Position numbers and translations under genes: made by a program. A DNA stretch of 64,000 nt from a virus. The stretch covers positions 1 through 64,000 of IMG/VR virus record IMGVR_UViG_3300049043_000070; one strand, given 5' to 3'. The notes beneath the pieces were generated by a model. The model searched no databases. It worked only from the letters and a program-made list of their open reading frames with translations, and was not told where the DNA came from. This document shows positions 6,066 to 53,325 of this stretch, piece by piece (positions within the stretch are counted from its first letter, which is position 1; each line of letters opens with the position of its first letter).

Positions 6066-6226
6066 ATATACATACAGAACACGAGAGAACGATGAAAGTT
6101 CCGAACTGGCAGCACCACTCCAAAAAAGAGCAGAAGCGTTCTCTCAAGCCACAAGCATTGAGAGCGGCTGAAAAAGCGTAGGCAGGCATTAAAGGTCAAA
6201 CTATTGGTCAGTATATGACCCCATGT

Positions 6227-6297
6227 GGGGGTATAGCTTAATGGTAGAGCGGCCTGCTTATAACGGGTTGGTCTGGGTTCAATTCCCAGTATCCCTA
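6227..6297 (+). tRNA. tRNA-Ile(UAU)
   Basis: Cloverleaf: acceptor GGGGGTA/TATCCCT, D arm GCTT/GAGC, anticodon stem GCCTG/CGGGT with loop CT-TAT-AA, T arm CTGGG-TTCAATT-CCCAG. Confidence 0.88.
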
Positions 6298-6299
6298 TC

Positions 6300-6373
6300 G
6301 CTCCTTTAGCAATCTGGTGAATGCACCGAACTCATAATTCGGTGAAGGTGGGTTCGATCCCCTCGAAGGAGCA
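6300..6373 (+). tRNA. tRNA with CAU anticodon (Met or Ile2)
   Basis: Acceptor GCTCCTT/AAGGAGC, anticodon stem CCGAA/TTCGG, loop CT-CAT-AA, TTCGATC T loop. Confidence 0.88.
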
Positions 6374-6378
6374 CCTAT

Positions 6379-6451
6379 GCCCGTGTAGTCCAACGGCAGA
6401 GACAGGGGACTTAAAATCCCTCCAGTGTCGGTTCGAATCCGACTACGGGTA
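6379..6451 (+). tRNA. tRNA-Leu(UAA), short variable loop
   Basis: Acceptor GCCCGTG/TACGGGT, anticodon stem GGGGA/TCCCT, loop CT-TAA-AA, T arm GTCGG-TTCGAAT-CCGAC. Confidence 0.85.
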
Positions 6452-6491
6452 TTCTTGTTAAATAGTAACAAGAACTACTAGATCAAATGTA

Positions 6492-6773
6492 ATGGCAGTT
6501 TTCAGGTACACCATCACTCGTAAGCACGTCTTTGTTGACAACGAACCTGTGTTGATGTATTATATTGAAAACATTCCATTTGCGTTTGATATTTTAGAAG
6601 AAGACCAGAAACATGATAAATGGATCTTGTCTGAGGCGGCACTCAACCAAGAATATACTATGGAAGAGATCTTTAGATACTCTGATTACTTGATTGCTGA
6701 AGAGTGCCACCCTGTATTGTTTGAACTAGACTTAGTTAATCCAGAAGTTTTACCCGATGAACCAGTTTCTTGA
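6492..6773 (+). CDS. Hypothetical protein (93 aa)
   Basis: Intact acidic ORF overlapping the cpeT start. Confidence 0.7.
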   Translation: MAVFRYTITRKHVFVDNEPVLMYYIENIPFAFDILEEDQKHDKWILSEAALNQEYTMEEIFRYSDYLIAEECHPVLFELDLVNPEVLPDEPVS

Positions 6774-7275
6774 ATACTTGGAGGGAACCTTTGCCAACAA
6801 AAGGCAAGCACAATCTCATCCTACTCGTTATGCTCATATTCGGGTACAACATCGGAAAATTTCCGATTTTCGCTTCTATGGCGAACAAGCATACAACTAT
6901 CTTCTAAATAACCCATATCGTCAATTTGTCATTGATGTAGAGGTTGAGAAGGGGCAGTTTCGTCTCAAAAATTATGAAATCGCAGATCCGCAAAGATTTG
7001 CTGAGTGTAAAAACCTTGAGCTCATCACAGATGACATCTTGACGTATCGGGAAGGATGTGATATAATTATCACTCAAACTGGTCCAGAAATGTTCCAGGG
7101 TGGCACATCTACTTGTGAGTGTTGGGTTGATTGGCAAGGTGTAAAAACCTATGTTCAAAATGAACTCACACTCACAAAAGATGAATACCACGTTATTGAT
7201 CGTGGACTTCATGCCGAAACCCATGCTAAAGTGTGGGGATCTGATTGGGGAGCGTTCAAGTTTGTTAGAATGTAG
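6757..7275 (+). CDS. cpeT: CpeT/CpcT-family phycobiliprotein chromophore lyase
   Basis: Motifs LEGTFANKRQAQSHPTRYAHIRV, FYGEQAYNY...PYRQ and IDRG...VWGS..GAFKF match the T-type lyase family. Confidence 0.88.
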   Translation: MNQFLEYLEGTFANKRQAQSHPTRYAHIRVQHRKISDFRFYGEQAYNYLLNNPYRQFVIDVEVEKGQFRLKNYEIADPQRFAECKNLELITDDILTYREGCDIIITQTGPEMFQGGTSTCECWVDWQGVKTYVQNELTLTKDEYHVIDRGLHAETHAKVWGSDWGAFKFVRM

Positions 7276-7283
7276 ACCTTCAC

Positions 7284-7354
7284 GCCCTATAAGCATTGTG
7301 GTGATGCAGCAGTTTTGTAAACTGCAGAGAACAGTTCAATTCTGTTATGGGGCT
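7284..7354 (+). tRNA. tRNA-Thr(UGU)
   Basis: Acceptor GCCCTAT/ATGGGGC, anticodon stem GCAGT/ACTGC, loop TT-TGT-AA, T arm AACAG-TTCAATT-CTGTT. Confidence 0.88.
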
Positions 7355-7515
7355 TCGGTACTCGTCATGCAGATAGCATAGAAGGAGGCCGAGGGGAAAG
7401 TCAGCATAAGGCTTCCCGCCAACTTCTACTACGGGTATCTTCCGTAGGGTCGTATGGGGATGATTGGGCAGGGTCTTAAGGACTTTGCCTTCTGGGCGAA
7501 GTCCGATCATCCCCT
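7355..7515 (+). ncRNA. Multi-hairpin structured RNA between tRNAs (manA-RNA-like candidate)
   Basis: At least five helices are visible: TCGGT/GCCGA enclosing ATGC/GCAT, GGGA-AGTC/GGCT-TCCC, CTACGG/CCGTAG, and GGGGATGAT/ATCATCCCC enclosing GGACTTTGCC/GGCGAAGTCC. It is GC-rich with no plausible ORF. Confidence 0.65.
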
Positions 7516-7518
7516 CAT

Positions 7519-7590
7519 CGTGGGGAAGTGTAACGGTTGCACAGAAGTCTCATAAGCTTCAGGTAGATGGTTCAATTCCATCCCCCGCCT
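7519..7590 (+). tRNA. tRNA with CAU anticodon and a 1:72 mismatch (possible initiator-like Met)
   Basis: Acceptor CGTGGGG/CCCCGCC with C1:C72 unpaired, anticodon stem GAAGT/GCTTC, loop CT-CAT-AA, T arm GATGG-TTCAATT-CCATC. Confidence 0.8.
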
Positions 7591-7596
7591 CTATAT

Positions 7597-7671
7597 CCTC
7601 TGTTAGTCTATTGGTAAGGACGGGTGGACAACACACATGGAAACTAGGTTCAATTCCTAGACAGAGGACCA
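7597..7671 (+). ncRNA. tRNA-like element with aberrant anticodon arm and encoded CCA
   Basis: Perfect acceptor CCTCTGT/ACAGAGG plus A-CCA, D arm GTCT/GGAC and T arm CTAGG-TTCAATT-CCTAG. The anticodon arm GGGTGGACAACACACAT pairs poorly and has no U33. Confidence 0.7.
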
Positions 7672-7672
7672 C

Positions 7673-7745
7673 GGGGAATTAGCTCAGTTGGTAGAGCACC
7701 TGCTTTGCACGTAGGTGGTCAGGAGTTCGAGTCTCCTATTCTCCA
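7673..7745 (+). tRNA. tRNA-Ala(UGC)
   Basis: Acceptor GGGGAAT/ATTCTCC with G3:U70, anticodon stem CCTGC/GTAGG, loop TT-TGC-AC. Confidence 0.93.
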
Positions 7746-7764
7746 TGAGTTCTTATTACTCATT

Positions 7765-7920
7765 ATGTCCTTGATTTCAAAAGCAGACAGACAATTAGCA
7801 CTAGAAGCAATTGAGTTTTATCTTTTCAATAAACAACATGACTTTACTGAAGACAAAAGAATACAACTCAACGCTCTTGCCAACTGGATTCGATTGGAAA
7901 GTTTCAAACATGAAAATTAA
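7765..7920 (+). CDS. Hypothetical protein (51 aa)
   Basis: MSLISKADRQLALEAIEFYL..., overlapping the next ORF. Confidence 0.55.
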   Translation: MSLISKADRQLALEAIEFYLFNKQHDFTEDKRIQLNALANWIRLESFKHEN

Positions 7921-8080
7921 TCTGTGGTATTGTGCTATAATGAAGCAGTGGCGCTGGTCTCTTACCGATGATCACCGTCCAATCGTTCGCCAAGAAAGCG
8001 GACAACAACCACATCTACGTGATGCTATGAATGACATAGCAAATACTGTAGAATTTCTTATGGACACTAAACAACTATAA
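7910..8080 (+). CDS. Hypothetical protein (56 aa)
   Basis: MKINLWYCAIMKQWRWSLTDD..., tiling between the tRNAs. Confidence 0.6.
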   Translation: MKINLWYCAIMKQWRWSLTDDHRPIVRQESGQQPHLRDAMNDIANTVEFLMDTKQL

Positions 8081-8086
8081 TTTCAT

Positions 8087-8158
8087 TCCCTTATAGCTCA
8101 ATTGGCAGAGCACGGAGCTGTTAACTCTGGGGTTCCTGGTTCGAGTCCAGGTGGGGAG
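8087..8158 (+). tRNA. tRNA-Asn(GUU)
   Basis: D arm GCTC/GAGC, anticodon stem CGGAG/CTCTG, loop CT-GTT-AA, T arm CCTGG/CCAGG. The 3' acceptor G-run looks one G short (probable homopolymer error). Confidence 0.85.
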
Positions 8159-8287
8159 TTTTGGAGAAAAATATGTTAAATAAAATTCGTGGAGATGTAA
8201 CTTGGAGAGAACAGTTTAATTATATTTTCATTTGCCTTAGAGAAATTTCAAAAATTCTAATATTGCGGAACAACTACAATCCTGGCG

Positions 8288-8335: not shown

Positions 8336-11300
8336 ATGCCATTAACACGTCTGGATAACCTTATCAGCCTCAAAAACTGGTAAGTATCTTTATGTTTCTC
8401 CTGATGATTTTAACGCGACAGATGCGTTATCCAACAGAGGCAATTCACCAATTACACCTTTCAAAAGTATCCAGCGTGCTTTCCTAGAAATCGCAAGATA
8501 TTCTTACCTTCCTGGTAAGGATAATGACCGTTTTGACCAGTTTAGCATCATGCTAATGCCTGGTATTCACTACATTGATAACCGCCCTGGTCTTGTAGAT
8601 ACCAACGGAATTAGTGTATTTGGTTTTGATCAAGCACTGAATGCTTGGACTGATAATAGTATCCTTGATATCTCCAATCCAAACAACGTACTTTATAAAT
8701 TTAATAACACGGAGGGTGGTGCGATCATCCCCCGTGGTTCTTCACTTGTTGGTTATGACCTTCGTAGAACAACGATCAGACCTCTCTACGTTCCTGATCC
8801 TGCTTCTGTAACTGTTCCTCGTTCTGCAATCTTTAATGTAACTGGTGGATGTTACTTCTGGCAGTTTACTATTAAAGATGGTCAGACAACTTCAGAATCA
8901 CCACTTTATAATTCTGCTGCTGGAACTGGTGAAGTTTATTATGATCCTAATGATTTTACCAAACTTACTGCTCCCAACTATTCTCACCACAAACTTACAG
9001 TATTTGAATATGCTGATACTGAAGAGTTAGGACTATTCTATAGAAAGATTGCTAAGGCATTCTCGGCATATCAACCAACTATTGATGATCCAGGTGAATT
9101 TGGTTTCAACATTCAAGAAAACAGAATTGTTGGACCTCTTTCTGATAGTCGTGTTATTGAAAGTTTGAAACTTGTTGATGCGACAACTGATCCAAGTATT
9201 CCTGCTTCTACAACCGAAGTTCAAGTAACAACTAAAGTTGATCACGGATACTTTGCTGGTCAGTTTGTCTCAATCTCAAACACCAACATTGATGATGTTC
9301 TTGAAGGATTTTTCCCAATTAAAGAAATTGATGAAAATGATCCTCGTAAGTTTACATATGAAGTTCCTTTCGTTGTTGGTGGAATTGGCAATAATATTGT
9401 ATCTGGACAAACAATCAGTGTAGATACAACTCCTGCTCTCGGACAAAACGCACAAACTCTTGCTGAGGTTGATAGCGTTGAATCTGCTTCTCCATACGTC
9501 TTCAACGTTTCAATTCGTTCAACTTGGGGTATTTGCGGTATCTGGGCAAATGGTCTAAAAGCCACTGGATTTAGATCCATGGTTATTGCTCAGTACACTG
9601 GTGTTTCTCTACAGAAAGACGATAGAGCATTCATTCGTTACGATGAGTATTCAAACACTTGGAACCAAGCATCACTCACTGACGCATTTGCTACTGTTCC
9701 TTATCACGCAAAGGGTGATAGTGACTGGAAAGATGAGTGGAGAAACTTCCACGTTCGTGCTTCTGAAGATGCTTTCATTCAGAACGTTTCTATCTTTGCT
9801 GTTGGTTTTGCTGATCACTTCCTGATGGAAAGTGGTGGTGACATGTCAATCACCAACTCTAACTCTAACTTTGGTAATACTTCTCTACATGCGATTGGTT
9901 TCAAAGGATTTGCTTTCAACCAAGACAAGGGTGGATACATTACTGACATTATTCCTCCAAAAAAAGCAGTAGAAGGATCTGAAAATATTCAAAAGATTGC
10001 TTATTATACTGTTGATATTCAGGGAACCATTCAAAACCCTAACAACTATACAAAACTATTCTTGGGTAGTGATGATATCATTATTCCTGCTGAGAGACCA
10101 GCTGCTACAATTGATGGATATAGGCTTGGTGCTAAATCAAACGATAAACTTTATGTAAAACTTGATCCAGCACCTGGAACTGGAGAAGTCTTCAATGTTG
10201 AATTAGAACCAACTGGTTTCTTAAAGTACATTGCTAAAGGATCTATTTTAAATCCGAGTGGAATTTCTATCAACAGTGTCTATGCCGATGCTGCTAACTT
10301 GATTGAAAGCAATCGCACAATGATCCAAGAAGAAGTTTTTGGATATATTCTTGAAAAGTATCCAAGACTTCAAAACATTCCTTACGTTAATCCTGGTCTA
10401 AATCCAGCGTGCTGGTCGTTACTTTGATGCTCGTAATCTAATTCTTAACAACCGTCAAGAGATTGTTGATACAGCATTCCAGCAGATGGTTGATACATTT
10501 GGTATTGGTAACATTCAAGGTGTTGCGAATGGTAAATGTAAGCGTGATATTGGATTTATTGTAGATGCTATCGCAGAAGACCTTAGAGACGGTGGAAATC
10601 TCAATACGATTGAAGCTACCAAATTCTACTTCAATGGCGATGGAACGCCACTACAGAACGGTCTGGTGGGAGAAGAGAACTATGCTGTCTTTGCTTTTAA
10701 TAGAGCAAGAGATCTTTGTAAGAAAGCAGTTGCTAACTTACTAACAGTAAAAGCAGACATTTATGATCCAGATCCAACCAGTATTCTAGCTCCTTATGGT
10801 GTGATTGCTGGTAGCACTGGTTCCGCTGCTCTCGGACTAAACAGCGAAGGCGTAACTGTTGATGCTTCCAACAAAGAAGATCCTGCTGGTCGTTACAAAG
10901 ATGCTCGCAATAGAATTATTGACAACAGAGAGTTTATTCTTGACGCAGCACTTGCTGAGATTGCTGTTTATCATCCAGATTTCTATATTCCTGGAGATAC
11001 TCAGAGCAACGCACAATCTCGTTTTGCTGATGCGTTCCGTCTCATTCGTCGTAATAGCAAGGAAATCACTGATAGAGCACTTGCTAAGATTGCTGTTGAT
11101 TACCCAGACTTCTATTTCCCTGGTGACGCACAAACCACAGCAGATTCGCGTTTCTATGATAGCTACCGTTTAATTCAGCAGAACAAGACAGAGATTGTCA
11201 ATACTGCTTGGACTAACATGGTCACTCAGTATCCTGGCGTTGCCTCTACTGAAACCAAGTGTAAAAGAGACCTTGGATACTTTGTTGATGCGATTTCACT

Positions 11301-14300
11301 TGACTTGTTCATTCGTGGTAACGAATATTCATACAGATTTGCTGCTGAGTATTTCTCAAATGCTACAACTCCAATCAGCAATGGTTTAGTTGGCGAAGTC
11401 ACTGAGAGTGTTTTTGCTTTCAATCAAGCAAGAACTTTAATGAAGTCTGCTGTTACAAACCAATTAACAGTAAAAGATCTTACTATTACTGCTGATCCTG
11501 CTACTGGTAGTAACACAAACGTAAACTCTTGTGCTAACGTTCGTTCTGCTATTGATACATTGAGCGGAATTGTTACTACAATTGTCAATGCTGGCAATCT
11601 CAATTCAATGCCACAGACGATCAACAAAGGATCTGCCCCTGCTGGGATGAAGAAGTGTGCTCGTGATATTGGATACTTCATTGATGCTATTTCCGTTGAC
11701 GTATTCACTGGTGGAAACAAGCATACTAGAACTTTCATTCAGCAATATTTTACAAATGCTACAACTCCAATCAGCAATGGTTTAGTTGGAGAAACTGCTC
11801 AGAGCAATACAGCATTCAATGAAGCCGCTGAGTTCATGCGTAGAGCAGTTACAAATCAACTCTACCATAAGGATCTTACCGTCACAGCAGATCCTGCGAC
11901 TGGCAATAATCAGAGTTCATCTTCATGTTCAAATGTCCAGTCAGCAATCACCACTCTTGCTGCCATCGCAACAACTGCTGTATCTGCTGGAAATCTAAAT
12001 TCACTTCCTGCTGAGAATGCCGGAACGTTCTTGACTGGAGAAACCAAGTGCCGTAGAGATATCGGTCACGTTGTTGATGCTGTTGCTCAGGATCTCTGGT
12101 TTGGTGGTAATGAATACACTATCGCAGCAACGAAGGAGTATTTCACTAACGCAACAACTCTACTTACAAATGGTGTTGCTGGTGAAACCGGACCTTCTAT
12201 CACAGCATTTAAGAGAGCAGCGGATTTAATGAACCGTGCTGTAAATAACCAGTATTATGATAGAGATCTAACACTTACGCTTGATAATACAGAGGATCCA
12301 GCATTTGTTGCTGATATTCATGCTGATGCTTATAATCTTGTTCTTGATAACAAGGAATTCATTGCGAAGGAAGCATATCTACGCATGAAGGCAGCATATC
12401 CTGCTTATACTCCACAAACTGGAAATACGGAGCAAGATTGTCTAGATGATGTTTATGATGTCTTAGAAGAAGTAATGTGGGATGTCAAGTTTGGTGGTAA
12501 CTCAAAGACTTATGATGCCGCAAATGTTTATGTAACCAACACTCTTAACGGACAACCAATTCAGACATTTATTGATGCTGAGCGTGATGAAGCTGCTAAA
12601 GTATTCACTGAAGTTAAGAACATCGCAATTCAAGTTCTCAGGAATGAAACAGTAACAGTTACATCTGGTAATACTTTCACACAGAAGAAAGATCTTACAA
12701 TTGTTAATGATTGGGATACTGAAGAACTACTTCCTAAGTGTGGTTCTGCTGTCGGCGCTGTTGATACTCTCATGGGTATCATTGTTCAAGCAATTGGTAA
12801 TGATGGTGGTGTAGGAAATCTAACCGGAATTACCAGAACTGCTCCAGCACAACCAACAACATATACTCTCGGCAATTGTTCCGACGTTTTAGCAACAATT
12901 GATACCTTGATTGGCATTATTTGTGACGCTCTTCAAGCTGGCAATCTTAATACTCTTCCACCTTTAACTAATGGTGAATGGGATTGTGCTAACGTCCGCT
13001 CATCAATTGAAAACCTATTTGATATTGTTACTGATGCTATCAGCACAGGATCTCTTGCTCAATTACCAATAGCAAACCCAGGTGACTTTATTGTTAATGC
13101 TACACAGTCTAAGTGCTATCGTGACGTATCTTACATTGTTGATGCGATTGTCAATGACCTCAGACTTGGTGGTAACATTAACAGCATTCAAGCAGGTGAA
13201 GCATATTATGTTGGAAACAATCTAACTTATATTGATGGAGAAAAACCAGAAACAATTGATGCTTGGAACTATGTTGGTCAGTTAGCAACAGCTGCCGATG
13301 CGTAATTTTGATGTTCTTGCTGTAAATTGCGTAACAACATCTGGATCGGCAATTGTGAATGTTGCTGATACTCGTGGCATCGTAATTGGAATGCGAGTTG
13401 TTGAGTATGCTAATACTCCAACTCCATATGTCAATGGATTGCTTCAATCAAATGCTGTTCCTATTTTACAGTAATATTCCGAAAGATACATTTGTTAAGA
13501 GAATTGTAAGTAATACTCAAATTGAATTGGGTGTTGCTAACGCAAGACTTACTACTGGCAATACAGTAAATTCTCTACAGAATAGTACCACAACCAGACT
13601 ATACTTTACATTTGAGAAAGGTCAGTGGGCAAATATTCAGACCAAGAACGGTTACGGTAGGACCAGAAGCATCTAATCCAGATGTTATTCAAGACACTCA
13701 GGCATATACACCTTCTTCTCCAACACAAAGAGAATGTGCTGGTGTTGCTAACGCAATTGAAACTCTGGTTGGAAACATTACCACGATCATCAACAGTGGT
13801 TTAGGAACTGTTGCTCGCCAAGAACAAACTGTAAATACGGCACTTCTTTCTTCAAGATCTACTGTATTTACAATTGATACAACTGGTTATGGTTCTACCA
13901 ATGCTCATAACTTTGAGACTGGAACACCAGTAAGACTTGTTCCACGTCCTCGCTTTGATGTGACGACTGGTAAGTATGTTGAAATTGATAAGCGTCTCAT
14001 CAGACTTCCAAAAGGATTTGAGACTAATAGAACATATTATGTCATTGCTCCTGGTAGAAGAACTCAACCAGAAGATTATAGTGGAACAACATTCTTTAAT
14101 GGAAGTGATCAGACAAAACTGATGCTCGCAACTTCTAAGGAGAATGCTGCTGCCGGTATTTACATCTATGCCGCTGAAACAGAAAGCATTGATCCTAATG
14201 TAGAAATTGATCTTTATCAGTTCATTCTTGATGACAAATATACACTACACAACTACAAGTGTAATCTAACTAACACTGTTAATGCTGGTATTGAAACTGA

Positions 14301-39431: not shown

Positions 39432-39626
39432 ATGCTAGAAAGTACATCGAACGATACAAACCAGAATACAGATTATACTGTTACACTAGATGAAGATGAG
39501 AATGGTGATCTGTTTATGCCCATTCCAGCAGATTTCCTCACTGAACTTGGTTGGACTGAAGATGATTTGCTGGAATGGATTGTAGAAGGTGACCAAATTA
39601 TCCTCCGTAAGGTAGAAGAAGAGTAA
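39432..39626 (+). CDS. AbrB/MazE/SpoVT-like swapped-hairpin DNA-binding protein
   Basis: YTVTLDEDENGDLFMPIPADFLTELGWTEDDLLEWIVEGDQIILRKV fits the AbrB-fold pattern. Confidence 0.7.
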   Translation: MLESTSNDTNQNTDYTVTLDEDENGDLFMPIPADFLTELGWTEDDLLEWIVEGDQIILRKVEEE

Positions 39627-44134: not shown

Positions 44135-45504
44135 ACTCTCATACACAACAGAAACCGATGGACTACGAAACTTACATCGACATCCACCAGTATTCCACTG
44201 ATGATAGATTTTATTACAAACTCAAAGTCACAGATGTAATGAATATGGATTACTACTATGAGGGTAGTGCCAAAACTCTTGATGATGTTATGGATTGTAT
44301 CAAACTTCATCTCAAACAACACCACATCTAAAATGACTACTCTCTTTGAAAAAACTATTCCTAAAATGTCTTGGGATACTCAATATCCCGAAGCACACGC
44401 AAAGGAATACTTTCCTTACAACAACTCTGAAGCAGAAGACATTATTTCTGCTATTTCAGAAGATAGTGGTGAAACCATCTGTGGTCGTTCGTTGATTATG
44501 CTTCTTCACCAAATGAATGAACGCATTTATGAACTTGAAAGTGAAATTCGTCAATTGAAAGGTGAATGAAATGACTAAAACAGAAAGAAAGGTAATGGAA
44601 GCATTTTGGAACTCTCATCAACAAGATAGATTTTATTGGCATCGTGATGGTGTTGCTGCTGCTCTCCGTGAAATGGCAAAACAACTTCAAAAATATGGTA
44701 CAATTGATGTGATTGAACTTGAACAACTGTGTAAGGAATTGGAGGTCTATGACTGAACGAGTAAAATTTGTATCAATCTCCCGCACAATTAGTGATGCTT
44801 CTGGTATTCATTACTTGGATGCGATTGATGAAAATGGGCAACACTGGACGGGACAAATGGAAACAGGTGTAGAAAAATGGATCACCTGGAAAGAAATGTG
44901 GAAGAAAAACACTCAACAACCTTATGACTTATGAATAACGATTGGAAACCATTTGGGATCAACGAAGGGCAAGGTTCCAATACAGTATCTTCATATTCCA
45001 CTTGGGATTATATGAGAATTGAACAACCAAAACGCATTTGTCGTTGTGATTTGTTTGGACAGGGACAAATGGTAATCAGTTTTTATGATGCTCAATCTAA
45101 CCTGTTCCCAATCGTTGGATTAGATTTTGGACACGAGTATTCTTCAATAGTAAATGGAACTTTGAAAATGAATAGAAAACTCTGGGATATTATACGGGAT
45201 GATTTGGGGTATAGTATTGACTGTACCGATGAGATTGTAGATGCCGTTGAGAAATGGTTGCCAAAACCACAATCTGCTGCTGGTTCTCAAAATGTTTATG
45301 TAGAGTGTACTGTTGAAGGTTTCAACGATTGTGTGCGTGAAATGAAGGGTATGTTACGATGACTGACGAACAAATTGAAATTCTACGATCACTAATCAAA
45401 GCAGAAGTAGAGCTGGGACTACAAAATGAAAATGGATATATGTGGGCATTTGAACAAGAGAAATCAAATGACCAGGCATGGGAAACATTCAAGGAGACAT
45501 TCAA

Positions 45505-45930
45505 ATGACTGAACCACTACACGCAAAAGTAACAGACGAAGACTTCCAAAAGATTGTTGAGGCATTTGATAATCCTCAACCATATCCAGAGGAAATGTTG
45601 GATGCTGCACGCACAGCAAACAAAGAACGTGAAAAGGAAGAATGGGAACGCAAAGTGAGAAGTGATCGTATTCTTCAACGATACAACACTTACCATAATC
45701 TTGAAACTTCTGGACTTCCTCACGGCACACCAATCACACCAGAACAGCAACAAATGATTGCGTTTCGTTCTATGATTGATGCCTTTAAGTGTGACCATCT
45801 CAATCAAGAATACACTCATATTGCGATTGATGATATTGAGGATTTGATTGAGGGACTTTATCAACAATCTATTGCTTTCTTGGACAGAGTTAAAAAACTT
45901 AAAAAATCAAGGTATAATACTAATGACTGA
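45505..45930 (+). CDS. Hypothetical protein with N-terminal DUF1778/TacA-antitoxin-like motif
   Basis: LHAKVTDEDFQKIVEAFDNPQPYPEEMLDAAR. Confidence 0.5.
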   Translation: MTEPLHAKVTDEDFQKIVEAFDNPQPYPEEMLDAARTANKEREKEEWERKVRSDRILQRYNTYHNLETSGLPHGTPITPEQQQMIAFRSMIDAFKCDHLNQEYTHIAIDDIEDLIEGLYQQSIAFLDRVKKLKKSRYNTND

Positions 45931-46402
45931 ACCATTTTATCGTTTCTTTGTTGTAGATTATTGTGCCACTGGTGAAGGTAGATCTATTTGGTTGAGAATT
46001 TGTCGTTACTATGAACCTTACGATGGTAGGGATCGTGAAAAAGAACGGTGGGAAAAGTTTGTTGGTCATGAATACTATCTTCAGTGTTCAGAAGAACCAA
46101 CAGAAGAAGAATTCTTCAAAAAATATGACAATCTCATTCCAGAACGTGTTAGAATGATGGTTGAGAAGCGTGACCAACCAATCTTTACCTGGGAAACACA
46201 TTACCATTTTAATTACTCATGAACGACAAAACACTCTACAATCCAGATGAATTTCTGCTGGATAATATCAAGAGCTATCACTATGAGGTGATGGATGAAG
46301 GGCATCATGTGTGGATGGCATTCTATCTTGAGAATGGTAACACAGGGCACTTGAATATTTTCCTGAATGCTGGTAGAATACAGACACGATATGAGGAATG
46401 GG

Positions 46403-46735
46403 ATGAAACGCTGGATTGAAGATTCACTCTGGGCAATCAGAAATTGTTTCTCATTTAGGTTTATACATTATGATGATAACATTGATCGGTTAGCATTCTT
46501 TGAAGAAATCAATTGTGGTTGGTATCAAATGTATATCTACCCCTATGATGATCTCTATGTACCAATCATATCAGAAGAAAGAAGATTACGGTTAGATCAG
46601 CATCCCATCACATTCTATGTGACACAAGAAGAATTTTATGATATGATGGATATGATTGAAAATCCACAACCAATCTCATCACAACTCAAACAACTGTTAG
46701 AAAGACAACCACCATGGGATACAAATCATGACTAG
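46403..46735 (+). CDS. Hypothetical protein with C-terminal DUF1778/TacA-antitoxin-like motif
   Basis: ITFYVTQEEFYDMMDMIENPQPISSQLKQLLERQPPWD. Confidence 0.55.
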   Translation: MKRWIEDSLWAIRNCFSFRFIHYDDNIDRLAFFEEINCGWYQMYIYPYDDLYVPIISEERRLRLDQHPITFYVTQEEFYDMMDMIENPQPISSQLKQLLERQPPWDTNHD

Positions 46736-49585: not shown

Positions 49586-50341
49586 TAACAAGTCAACACA
49601 AAACACATGCCTGACACTTACAATTTCACTGGCGATGGTGTTACTTTCCTTGGTTTGGTTGGTGTTATCTCCACCGCCATTATCATCGTAACTGCCTTCA
49701 CTCGTTACTACAATTCTCCCCTTCGGAAATGAACACTCAACTTCTTTCTGTTCGTGAGCAAATCCAACAGGACATTCTCACTTACGCTTCATTCATTGAT
49801 GATGAGAAAATCTTTTTTAATGATGAAGTTTTAGTTGAACTTTGTGAGATTGTTGTCCGTAACTTTGAGAAACTGAACTGATTATGTACCGTACACTTTC
49901 TGAACTTCGTGATAGCATCAACAGTATGATTGATGCTCAAGGTGAAGATGCTGCCTGTGCTGCATTTGTATTCACTCAACACGATGTCTTTGAGTTCAAC
50001 GAAGACACTAACCAAGACGACTATTTCTCTACACTTTTCACTCAAGATGTGCTCGCTGATGTAGGTGGTTCCGACTACATTTACGAACAGGTTGGTGAGA
50101 TGATTGATGATGCGATTCGTCTCCGTAAAAAACTTCCCCTCTACGCTAACTGAACCATGAGCAACACTTTTGACCGTCAGGCACTCGTTGAAGCATACAT
50201 CGACCGCCTGCTTGATAACATGAGCACCAAAGATTTGCTGCAGATTGTTGGTGACCAGATGGAAGAAAACATCACCAGCTATACTGATGAGGAACTGATT
50301 TCTGAGGTTGAGTCTTACTATCCTGATTTGTTGGAGGATTG

Positions 50342-50527
50342 ATGATGACTGACCCAAACCAACTCAATCTCTACAAAATGTACGATCACCTAAATCAAAC
50401 TTGCAAAAAGTGTGGTGAAGGTTACTATAAAGAAACGAGCATTCATGATGATTGGGATGGTGTTCTTCATTGCTCTAAGTGTGCTCATGAAGTGAAACGA
50501 CACATAAAAGTTTGGGACACAAAGTAA
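50342..50527 (+). CDS. Small zinc-ribbon protein
   Basis: CKKC...HCSKC Cys pairs. Confidence 0.55.
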   Translation: MMTDPNQLNLYKMYDHLNQTCKKCGEGYYKETSIHDDWDGVLHCSKCAHEVKRHIKVWDTK

Positions 50528-50550
50528 CACAAACTGGGCGGCCGCTTCGC

Positions 50551-50609
50551 TGTGCCAGTTGGCAGACTGTCCACCAATCCCCCCAGACTGCCCCTGGGGG
50601 TGCCATACT
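50551..50609 (+). promoter_or_regulatory. Palindrome-promoter cassette
   Basis: TGTGCCAGTT-N4-GACTGTCCAC, 29 bp, CATACT. Confidence 0.8.
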
Positions 50610-50775
50610 AGTCTCATGAAAACAAACAACCCCTACGTCGCTCAGATCCTCGCTAAGGGTCGGGACTATGTGCCCACCCCTGCCCCTAAGGCAGAGTACC
50701 CCCGTACCATCCATGGTCGGGTCTTTGAGACTGAGGCAGACTATCAGGAAGCGATGGCAGACTTCCTAAACGGTC

Positions 50776-50834
50776 TGTGACACTTGCGGGGGTGTCCACT
50801 GATGCCCCCATCCTGCCCAAATCCATTCTATCAT
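50776..50834 (+). promoter_or_regulatory. Palindrome-promoter cassette
   Basis: TGTGACACTT-N4-GGGTGTCCAC, 29 bp, TATCAT. Confidence 0.75.
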
Positions 50835-50855
50835 TCTCTCAGTTCAAACAAACAA

Positions 50856-51284
50856 ATGTCTGTCACCTTGACCGCTAACTATAAAGAAGTGCTCTCTGCC
50901 GATGCTGTAGAGAAGGTGGATGAGTTGCTCGAAGAGAATTATGCTCTCGACGACATGTTGGAGTTCATTGATAACTACAACGAAAACGATTTTGTTGCCT
51001 ATTATGAAGAGTATGTGCGCTGTGGTGAAGCGATCGGTTATGATGCCGTTGATGCTTTGATCGGTGAGATGGGTTGCGTTTCTGACATCGAAGGGTGTGA
51101 TGAACGCTACCGTGGTTGTTACGAATCCACCGCTGATTTTGCTGAAGAGTTTTACAACGACATCAGCGATGTGCCCTCTGCTTTGGTGATTGATTGGGAG
51201 GCGACCTACGATAGTTCGCTGCGCTACGATTTCACCGCTTGTGAAGTGAAGTATCGTGTGGTCTACATCTTCAGCGACTACTGA
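50856..51284 (+). CDS. ArdA-like acidic antirestriction (DNA mimic) protein
   Basis: Very Asp/Glu-rich. The C-terminal YRGCYESTADFAEEF...VPSALVIDWEATY...LRYDF resembles the ArdA C-terminal domain. Confidence 0.7.
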   Translation: MSVTLTANYKEVLSADAVEKVDELLEENYALDDMLEFIDNYNENDFVAYYEEYVRCGEAIGYDAVDALIGEMGCVSDIEGCDERYRGCYESTADFAEEFYNDISDVPSALVIDWEATYDSSLRYDFTACEVKYRVVYIFSDY

Positions 51285-51359
51285 TCTTCACCCCACAAAG
51301 TATACCTAACTCACCATGACGCATTTTACCATGCCCACCCTGCCCGTGATCCGTCAGCG

Positions 51360-51418
51360 AGGGACACTTGCCGAACTGGTCTACCTGTGGGCGATGCAGC
51401 GCCTGGGGTCTGTAGGAT
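51360..51418 (+). promoter_or_regulatory. Palindrome-promoter cassette
   Basis: AGGGACACTT-N4-AACTGGTCTA, 29 bp, TAGGAT. Confidence 0.7.
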
Positions 51419-51613
51419 ACGATCAAACAAACAAACCACATGACCAAGACAGAAGCAACCGCCCTCGCCATCGCCATCGTTCACAGCAACTGCCCCAACG
51501 CTGCCAACGGGCATGTGCGGATGCTGCATCAGACCCCTGAGGGTGCTGAGATGCTGCGCCTGATTGTTCGTGATGATCTCTGCGGTGCTGCTGACATCAT
51601 CGCCAACGCCCTG

Positions 51614-51672
51614 TGGCACAATCTCTGAACTGTCCACCATCCCCCAGGATCTGACCCCAGACCCTGTAGGAT
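51614..51672 (+). promoter_or_regulatory. Palindrome-promoter cassette
   Basis: Right arm AACTGTCCAC, 29 bp, TAGGAT. Confidence 0.7.
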
Positions 51673-51852
51673 ACAAACAACAAAGCAAACACCCCATGTC
51701 GTTTCTCGCCAAATCAATTCTGGTCATGCTGATGGGCAGCGTGACCATCGTGGCAGGTGCCCACGTCATGGATGCCGCCCTTAAAGTTCGGGATAAGATC
51801 GACCATCGCAACGCCCTAACCTGCCAGCAGATCAACGAGATCACCCCTGGAG

Positions 51853-51911
51853 GGTGCCACATGGGCAAGTGACCACCAGCCCCCAGGATCTGACCCCAGA
51901 CCGTCTAGACT
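51853..51911 (+). promoter_or_regulatory. Palindrome-promoter cassette
   Basis: GGTGCCACAT-N4-AAGTGACCAC, 29 bp, TAGACT. Confidence 0.75.
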
Positions 51912-52129
51912 GATCACAACGAAACGAAACGACCCATGACCGTTCGAACCAACGTGCTTCCCCTTGACCTCTGCACCGTCACCCTGACTGAGGCGCAGTG
52001 GTCTACGATCCGAACCGCTTTGCTGTGTCTCGCTTGCGACTGCCGTGTTGCTGGCAAGTCTACCGACGCAGACTACTACCTGAACGCTTACAACAACCTG
52101 AAGGCAGCGATGGGGATGGACGCCTGAGG

Positions 52130-52175
52130 CACTGTCCACCAGCTGCCCCATCGGGCACTGCTGACCCCTTATACT
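52130..52175 (+). promoter_or_regulatory. Half-site promoter cassette
   Basis: CACTGTCCAC, 30 bp, TATACT. Confidence 0.65.
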
Positions 52176-52460
52176 GATCACATCAGCAAACGACACATGA
52201 CCAACACCCTCAGCACCTACAACGGTTGGGCAACCTACGAAACCTGGAATGCCGCCCTGTGGATTGGCAATGATCAATTCCTCTACAACACCGCTAAGGC
52301 ATGTGTAGAGTACTGCGGCGATGATGAGACCCCTTGGGATAAGTTCGTTCGCTGCATGACCGATGGCATCATCGGGCGCCACCTTGTTCAGACCCGTGAC
52401 GGTGTGCGTTGGAATTCCCCGCCATTGATGCAGATGAGATGAACGAGATGATGGCAGAGC

Positions 52461-52520
52461 TGTGACGATCGAAGGGGTGGCACAGTCTGCCCCCGATCTC
52501 CCATCCTGACCCTGTAGACT
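52461..52520 (+). promoter_or_regulatory. Palindrome-promoter cassette
   Basis: TGTGACGATC-N4-GGGTGGCACA, 30 bp, TAGACT. Confidence 0.7.
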
Positions 52521-52994
52521 AACAGCATGAACAAACAACCCCTCCAACAGCAAGGCGCCTTCCTGGTCAACGAGACCGCCGCCAACGACCCCATCATCCA
52601 GCAGGTGATGGCATCCTACATGGAGCGCCTCGCCCAAGAGGCAGCATACCGCGAGGATGTGCGCTCTGGCAAGGTCGCCCCTGTCCAGACTGGTAGCTGG
52701 CACATCAGCGACCGCCACTGAGGGGTCGCCCCTGTAGACTAACCACAGATCAAACGAACCCAACCCATGGCAATCTACTCTCAGTGCTCTGACCTCGAAA
52801 CCCGTGAGACCATGTGGGTCGCTCGCAAGACAGAGACCGCCCGACAGACCCGCTACGCTGGCATGATCTGCCCTGCTGAGGGTTGGTGGTGGGCAGGCGT
52901 TCATGCCGATGCCTTCCATGAGGAGGCAGTCTCCAAACTCCCCACCTTCGGGTGACCCCCCATCCTACCACACCCCCATTTCTCTACACTAACC

Positions 52995-53174
52995 GTGACA
53001 ACCAAACAACTACAGAAATTGGCAAAGGTGCATGGGTGGACATTACATAGAAACGGTGGCAAACATTACATCTATCGCCACGAAGATGCAAGCAAACAAA
53101 TCACAATCCCCTATCAAGTTAAGTCATTCGTAGGGCGCAACATCGCCAAGCAGTTAGTGACAGTGGGGCAGTGA
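52995..53174 (+). CDS. HicA-like mRNA interferase (59 aa, GTG start; absent from the ORF track)
   Basis: MTTKQLQKLAKVHGWTLHRNGGKHYIYRHEDASKQITIPYQVKSFVGRNIAKQLVTVGQ has the HicA GW..R.G.H.I..H...IT.P pattern. A TACACT -10-like element lies just upstream. Confidence 0.72.
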   Translation: MTTKQLQKLAKVHGWTLHRNGGKHYIYRHEDASKQITIPYQVKSFVGRNIAKQLVTVGQ

Positions 53175-53258
53175 AATTGCCCCCTTAAGTATAACGGGGC
53201 GGCCAGAGCGGGTCCCATACAGCACCTCCCCTAACCTACAAAAGTATCCAGACGACCG

Positions 53259-53265
53259 ATAAATA
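53259..53265 (+). promoter_or_regulatory. Late promoter-like ATAAATA
   Basis: ATAAATA at the boundary between the GC-rich early region and the AT-rich late genes. Confidence 0.55.
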
Positions 53266-53325
53266 TTGTTGAAAATGGTTTTTTGAAAACCTCAAAAAAT
53301 AAAAAATTTTCCCAGAAAAAAAATC

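Follow-up and report, generated by a model that had tools for sequence, protein, structure and literature searches.

A DUF1778-like tail without an RHH domain in a cyanomyovirus protein family, a candidate phage orphan antitoxin

DUF1778 antitoxins (TacA, AtaR and KacA; PF08681) carry an N-terminal RHH domain for DNA binding and dimerisation and a C-terminal strand-helix-PxxP-helix segment, and the GNAT toxins of this class, encoded downstream of them, are aminoacyl-tRNA acetyltransferases. Phages can themselves encode orphan antitoxins or antitoxin mimics, as is known from the Dmd protein of T4. In the accessible parts of the respective reports, further examples are orphan DarG-like enzymes in T4-like phages (PMC11825919), a mimic of the DarTG antitoxin in a Vibrio phage (PMC11481870), and TifA, which acts against ToxIN (PMC10853763). 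For KacA, the structural passages of PMC6698736 divide residues 52-86 into strand bB (52-56), helix aC (57-70), a PPAP linker (71-74) and helix aD (75-86), and describe this segment as wrapping KacT in a high-affinity contact. In our literature search, which covered some papers through excerpts, no paper was found showing that GNAT-DUF1778 pairs defend against phage, and none was found linking cyanophages with DUF1778. The paper on Synechococcus CB0101, the host of cyanophage S-SZBM1, reports seven toxin-antitoxin pairs, and the terms GNAT, DUF1778 and acetyltransferase are absent from its available text.

In this work, we have analysed a window of 64,000 nucleotides, which is the first 64 kb of the virus record IMGVR_UViG_3300049043_000070 (186,293 bp in total, judged 96% complete). 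The DNA kin of this phage are T4-like cyanomyoviruses of the Kyanoviridae (10 records matched, every one a cyanophage), with S-CREM1, S-PM2, S-SZBM1, S-RIM32 and S-SRM01 among the matched relatives. Since a 164-aa piece of the phage psbA shows 98-99% identity with Cyanobium and Synechococcus genomes, including those of Cyanobium usitatum and Synechococcus RCC307, the host is probably a picocyanobacterium. This psbA lies outside the window, at about 171043-171916 of the record, and is distributed over 3-4 reading frames that are separated by stops; the gene may be broken or contain an intron, or the assembly may be at fault.

The original prediction held that two proteins of the window share a grafted DUF1778 motif on otherwise unrelated bodies, with neither an RHH domain nor a GNAT partner. 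We have located both strings, in frame and on the + strand, in two ORFs, here called ORF A and ORF B, whose genes are about 1 kb apart. The bodies are indeed unrelated, as residues 45-140 of ORF A match phrog_32546 (E 1.3e-33) and ORF B has no match in PHROG. RHH domains are likewise missing from the Pfam scans, and searches with PF13508 and a host toxin alignment have found no GNAT gene in the 96%-complete phage genome. A DUF1778 origin of the motif is supported for ORF B and is not supported for ORF A. We suggest that ORF B may be a derivative of a DUF1778 antitoxin which has no RHH domain and would displace the host antitoxin on a GNAT toxin, with ORF A set apart; our confidence in this reading is a little above even.

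ORF B (46403..46735, + strand) encodes 110 aa from the ATG at 46403. The ORF lister places the start at 46367 (46367-46735, 122 aa), but the real start is probably ATG 46403 (MKRW...), because GAGGAA stands just upstream and some homologs begin with MKRW. The original prediction also described the protein as early; the promoter and terminator scan gave 19 sites against 19.6 in shuffled sequence, an outcome with no excess to back early expression. The product consists of a body (46403..46606, + strand; FRF..Y.DNIDRLAFFEE.N.GWYQMYIYPYDD) and a tail (46607..46720, + strand), the latter being made of an ITFYV strand, an TQEEFYDMMDMIE helix, an NPQP linker and an ISSQLKQLLERQPPWD helix. Across the family, the body is about 75 aa long, aromatic-rich and phage-specific, and the last 40 aa form the antitoxin-like tail. 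AlphaFold2 models the body with low confidence (block-mean pLDDT 50-77), the search of the ESM Atlas with the body has given no usable match, and weak matches to monellin (E 0.2-0.9) are probably noise.

A large protein collection contains 47 relatives of ORF B, of which 8 carry a precomputed PF08681 match; for one, the source gives the name DUF1778. Among cultured phages, homologs have been found only in S-PM2 (S-PM2p014) and S-SZBM1 (5 of 50,697 records), and gene 102 of S-SZBM1 is annotated as 'DUF1778 domain-containing protein'. Since the family is present in these two cultured phages, genetics is feasible. In metagenomes the family is common: 122 of 140 candidate IMG/VR stretches have been confirmed as relatives, and an exhaustive profile search has returned 87 clusters (50% identity) at E<=0.001.

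When searched as a whole against Pfam, ORF B shows no match at E<=10, neither to RHH nor to TacA. A six-frame search of the phage genome with PF08681 returns nothing at E<=10, and single-sequence searches of PDB and NCBIfam give no TacA link. The cut 42-aa tail matches PF08681 with 12.2 bits (E 0.18, profile positions 46-77 of 80), which is below the curated cut-off of 21 bits. Its homologs in S-SZBM1 and S-PM2 match the same profile with E 0.004 and E 0.05, respectively. The family alignment comprises ORF B and its 47 relatives, and 35 of these 48 sequences match PF08681 at E<=0.1, the best at 2.4e-7. The tail segments match the profile only towards its C-terminus, at positions 44-77 of 80. 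We have further compared the ORF B family by hhalign with an alignment of host antitoxins (15 of the 25 parsed), and have obtained a probability of 93.3% and E 2.6e-7, with ORF B residues 81-122 (122-aa form) paired with host antitoxin residues 53-92.

In addition, a tail-only profile, based on 30 of the 52 distinct phage tails, finds as its best match in PDB the DUF1778 chain 7f37_C (E 6.2e-7), aligned to the last residue of the chain. DUF1778 chains account for 10 of the 36 rows of this search, and the other nine, at E 0.009-0.3, include the AtaR C-terminus, TacA1, TacA2, the peptide of a TacA3 entry and KacA residues 52-80; the noise level of the search is indicated by unrelated chains that score E 0.003-0.03. 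Such unrelated chains, together with the shortness of the segment (about 40 aa) and the score of ORF B itself under the Pfam cut-off, speak for a chance or low-complexity match. Nevertheless, we regard this explanation as very improbable, given the match of 35 family members to PF08681, the E value of 7f37_C, and the fact that two divergent phage families align with the host antitoxins. The second of these families is a paralog of ORF B, termed B2, whose hhalign match to the host antitoxins (E 4.4e-7) is independent of the ORF B family; PF08681 is matched by 11 of 24 scanned B2 proteins.

The predicted order of elements in the tail, ITFYV / TQEEFYDMMDMIE / NPQP / ISSQLKQLLERQPPWD, fits the strand-helix-linker-helix unit of KacA. 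In the AlphaFold2 model, the tail (pLDDT 81-87) consists of a helix at residues 87-98, a loop and a helix at residues 105-111. Foldseek gives no significant match for the low-confidence ORF B model; its rows 1 and 3, both non-significant, are the AtaT-bound AtaR C-terminus (E 7.5) and TacA2 (E 9.2). A terminal R-x-x-P-W-[DE] motif is common to the phage tail and to host antitoxins encoded beside GNAT genes. The linker is different, being NPQP in ORF B and mostly PP at the matching place in the aligned host antitoxins. Overall, on the profile evidence, the C-terminal 40 aa of ORF B is a homolog of the DUF1778 segment that binds the toxin through its strand-helix-PxxP-helix unit.

ORF B differs from the DUF1778 antitoxins in the rest of its architecture. 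All of its matches are to the C-terminal part of the TacA model or of the templates, none of them reaching the RHH part, and among the 48 sequences of the family alignment a weak RHH_7 match appears in one (E 0.093). The place of the N-terminal RHH domain is taken by the unrelated aromatic-rich body, and the gene is phage-encoded and has no GNAT gene downstream. A GNAT toxin borne by the phage itself was considered and rejected, as the genome-wide searches named above came back empty. What we have found is a homolog of host antitoxins in a phage that has no cognate toxin, which is the definition of an orphan antitoxin, and ORF B is plausibly a candidate for one. It resembles the DarG-like enzymes, the DarTG mimic and TifA, as far as the accessible text of those reports describes them, in being related to, or mimicking, an antitoxin whose toxin gene is absent from the phage. 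Unlike them, its putative toxin belongs to the GNAT class, and the toxin-binding module alone appears to be kept, on a new scaffold.

We have examined how body and tail are combined in 80 IMG/VR loci, where the pairing was judged within the flanks. These loci contain 88 ORFs with the body, 28 of them with the tail and 60 without it. There are also 38 tail-bearing ORFs with no match to the body HMM, namely 36 B2 genes and two single cases, L163, where the frame of a full-length gene is broken and the ORF represents its tail half, and L184, where the sole tail match is a family-A protein. Counted per locus, 28 have only the full-length gene with body and tail, 14 have a body-only gene without a tail ORF (the stand-alone body gene encodes 69-109 aa), and 38 have a body-only gene with a nearby tail ORF, which in 36 is B2. 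By hhalign, B2 and the ORF B family share both body and tail (probability 99.2%, E 8.6e-20, 87 columns). The full-length form (28 loci) and the pair of body-only gene and B2 (36 loci) are mutually exclusive within the examined flanks, and this suggests a history of gene split or duplication. Among metagenomic protein clusters, proteins of 49-78 aa also occur that contain little beyond the tail and have varied short N-termini, though some of them may be truncated gene calls. For ORF B, the modularity claimed by the original prediction is therefore borne out, in that the body also exists as a protein of its own and the tail is joined to other N-termini.

The same data bear on a reading in which the tail, although genuinely homologous to DUF1778, has been repurposed, to hold another GNAT-fold, host or phage partner or to serve as a tether for the body, and does not neutralise a toxin. 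In the family alignment all invariant columns fall within the body, which is more conserved than the tail, and the body ORFs are often alone, as the 60 of 88 show. Moreover, PADLOC 2.0 has no model that matches the host GNAT-DUF1778 pair, so that such pairs are not among the known defence systems. Against repurposing, the whole strand-helix-linker-helix unit has been retained together with the R-x-x-P-W-[DE] end, and short proteins that are nearly tail only exist both in the metagenomic clusters and in host genomes. We consider repurposing unlikely, and continue with ORF B as a putative antitoxin derivative.

PF08681 is found above its cut-off in 92 of 301 genomes sampled from the family to which Cyanobium usitatum belongs, i.e., in about a third. 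When five named genomes were searched with PF08681, four proved to be without DUF1778, the one with the closest psbA match among them. We have parsed 25 of the 26 antitoxin loci L086-L111 (L102 was left out, having no match to the tail HMM), and in all 25 an ORF of 165-171 aa begins at the antitoxin stop; all four downstream ORFs that were tested are GNAT acetyltransferases. At E<=0.01, 38 of the 301 genomes are matched by the phage tail-only profile. The matched sites are nearly always antitoxin C-termini, and about five weak rows fall in long unrelated frames. That the host scans return antitoxin C-termini almost exclusively also speaks against a chance match. The canonical antitoxin subtype that scores highest with this profile has the C-terminus ...LFARQAPWDAQ.

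The three best host matches (E 3.5e-14 to 1e-8) are ORFs of 64-65 aa at loci L194-L196, from three picocyanobacterial genomes, which have no RHH domain and no match in Pfam. Each of them overlaps with the beginning of a GNAT gene of 202-205 aa (PF00583 above cut-off) and is preceded by a DUF6088/AbiEi-like gene, in DNA with a GC of 0.62-0.64. In BLASTP, one of them is identical to a phage B2 tail at 21 of 39 positions without gaps (E 9e-18), which again argues against chance. These host ORFs are like the phage proteins in that they lack the RHH domain and have nearly the same tail, ending in RKAPWD/E; they are unlike them in being cellular, in overlapping a GNAT gene, and in having, where the phage proteins have the body, a short N-terminus that looks unstructured. 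As judged from these comparisons, the phage tails have their closest cellular relatives in the tail-only ORFs without RHH domain that stand beside GNAT genes in the host family. The trio of DUF6088-like gene, tail-only ORF and GNAT gene looks like an undescribed variant of the GNAT toxin-antitoxin systems.

ORF A (45505..45930, + strand) encodes 141 aa from the ATG at 45505 and belongs to phrog_32546, a large family of cyanophage proteins whose N-termini are mosaic. The ORF lister gives it as 45478-45930; translation most likely begins at ATG 45505 (MTEPLHAKV...), because this codon overlaps the upstream stop as ATGA, GGAGA stands 8 nt upstream, and most homologs begin with MTEPL. Its motif (45517..45615, + strand), LHAKV-TDEDFQKIVEAFD-NPQP-YPEEMLDAART, resembles the ORF B tail. 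We have searched the 186-kb genome, as the full set of its 4035 stop-to-stop ORFs with a minimum length of 25 aa, with an HMM of 41 family-B tails. It scores ORF B with E 2e-19, ORF A with E 0.002 and the next ORF with 0.65, and finds no third copy of the tail; in this direction the likeness of the two proteins exceeds chance. The pattern written as a regular expression matches ORF A, ORF B and one unrelated ORF on the reverse strand.

Several observations would make ORF A a second bearer of the antitoxin module. By hhalign, family A and family B align with a probability of 88% (E 2.9e-6, 37 columns), ORF A is the sole other match of the tail HMM in the genome, the two genes are close neighbours, and for the cut 47-aa segment of ORF A the only Pfam match is PF08681 (E 0.041). 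Nonetheless, we lean slightly towards the explanation that this motif is a native helix, N-x-x-P-Y-P turn and helix, and that its likeness to DUF1778 has arisen by convergence or reflects a generic helix cap and stop. Among 48 family-A members that were chosen for carrying the motif, at most one matches PF08681 at E<=0.1, as this profile is missing from the Pfam families that at least two of them match, and the hhalign comparison with the host antitoxins gives a probability of 0.9% (E 0.062, 20 columns), so that the profile check, which supports DUF1778 kinship for the ORF B family, gives no such support to the ORF A family. The family-A motif HMM, searched against 1273 ORFs, fails to detect any host antitoxin (best E 6.8), and in this reverse direction it detects ORF B with E 0.55 only.

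The family has 525 matches, and of the 120 listed members 58 have the strand-helix motif; in the other 62 the strand-helix part is absent or swapped for another helix, with NQEPYPDEMFEEAERRE often retained. The members in S-WAM1 and S-RIM32 begin directly after the motif, at MTYPDEMFEEAERRE. In the AlphaFold2 model of ORF A (pLDDT 72), residues 38-75, after NPQPYP, form one 38-residue helix that is continuous with the body. P0235, an unrelated eukaryote-like repeat protein of 2694 aa, matches the tail profile with E 1.6e-6 through 12 summed 'LRSDDFKNIVAIVDNEPETKQVLNFL' repeats, and this shows that a similar short motif can arise independently. Since the links to DUF1778 are non-significant and the motif continues into the body helix, we have not counted ORF A as an antitoxin module; its motif is most likely native to its own helical family.

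The window contains other genes related to toxin-antitoxin systems, and those which the original prediction had listed as AbrB-like and HicA are real. The first is an ORF of 64 aa of the MazE/AbrB antitoxin type (39432-39623, + strand; PF04014 E 3.1e-8, above cut-off), which has no recognisable adjoining toxin and is another orphan antitoxin-like gene. The second is a HicA toxin-like ORF of 59 aa (52995-53171, + strand; PF07927 E 4.8e-8). Around the latter, a GC-rich island extends over about 50000-53300 (GC 0.49-0.51, compared with about 0.38 in the surroundings), in which the HicA-like ORF is the sole recognisable gene and the long reverse-strand ORFs look spurious; the island may be host-derived. 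Elsewhere, a protein of 939 aa (10486-13302, + strand) has a phycobilisome-protein-like stretch (PF00502 E 1.3e-11), and there are host-like genes for CP12 (1516-1746) and CpeT (6757-7272) and a cluster of seven tRNAs (6226-8160; Ile-TAT, Met-CAT, Leu-TAA, Thr-TGT, Leu-CAA, Ala-TGC and Asn-GTT). The spare Met and Ile tRNAs had been taken to fit with GNAT toxins, an argument that we have dropped because no result supports it.

For ORF B, we can propose how the putative antitoxin derivative would act. Its phage-specific body of about 75 aa would carry the segment that in bacterial antitoxins wraps the GNAT toxin. During infection of a picocyanobacterium, host gene expression would collapse and the labile host antitoxins would decay, and the ORF B protein could then replace the decayed antitoxin on the free GNAT toxin. 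A toxin bound in this way would be unable to acetylate aminoacyl-tRNAs, and translation would not be stopped before the phage finishes. We infer toxin binding, neutralisation, their timing and the restriction of phage by these pairs. A broader proposal would be that T4-like cyanophages widely carry a portable GNAT-toxin clamp of 40 residues, exchanged with host antitoxins and fixed to phage-specific bodies or to hardly any body at all, which disables a hitherto unrecognised GNAT-DUF1778 abortive-infection defence of picocyanobacteria, and that the host trio without RHH domain takes part in the same arms race; we put this forward as a tentative and rather doubtful extension.

If the proposed role of ORF B is true, the family would be a phage counter-measure against GNAT toxins that acetylate tRNA, of which no description has been found in the literature, as far as its text was accessible. 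It would also give indirect evidence that GNAT-DUF1778 pairs take part in the phage defence of abundant aquatic cyanobacteria. Moreover, it would demonstrate that a toxin-binding peptide from a type II antitoxin, once separated from the DNA-binding domain, can function as a transferable module.
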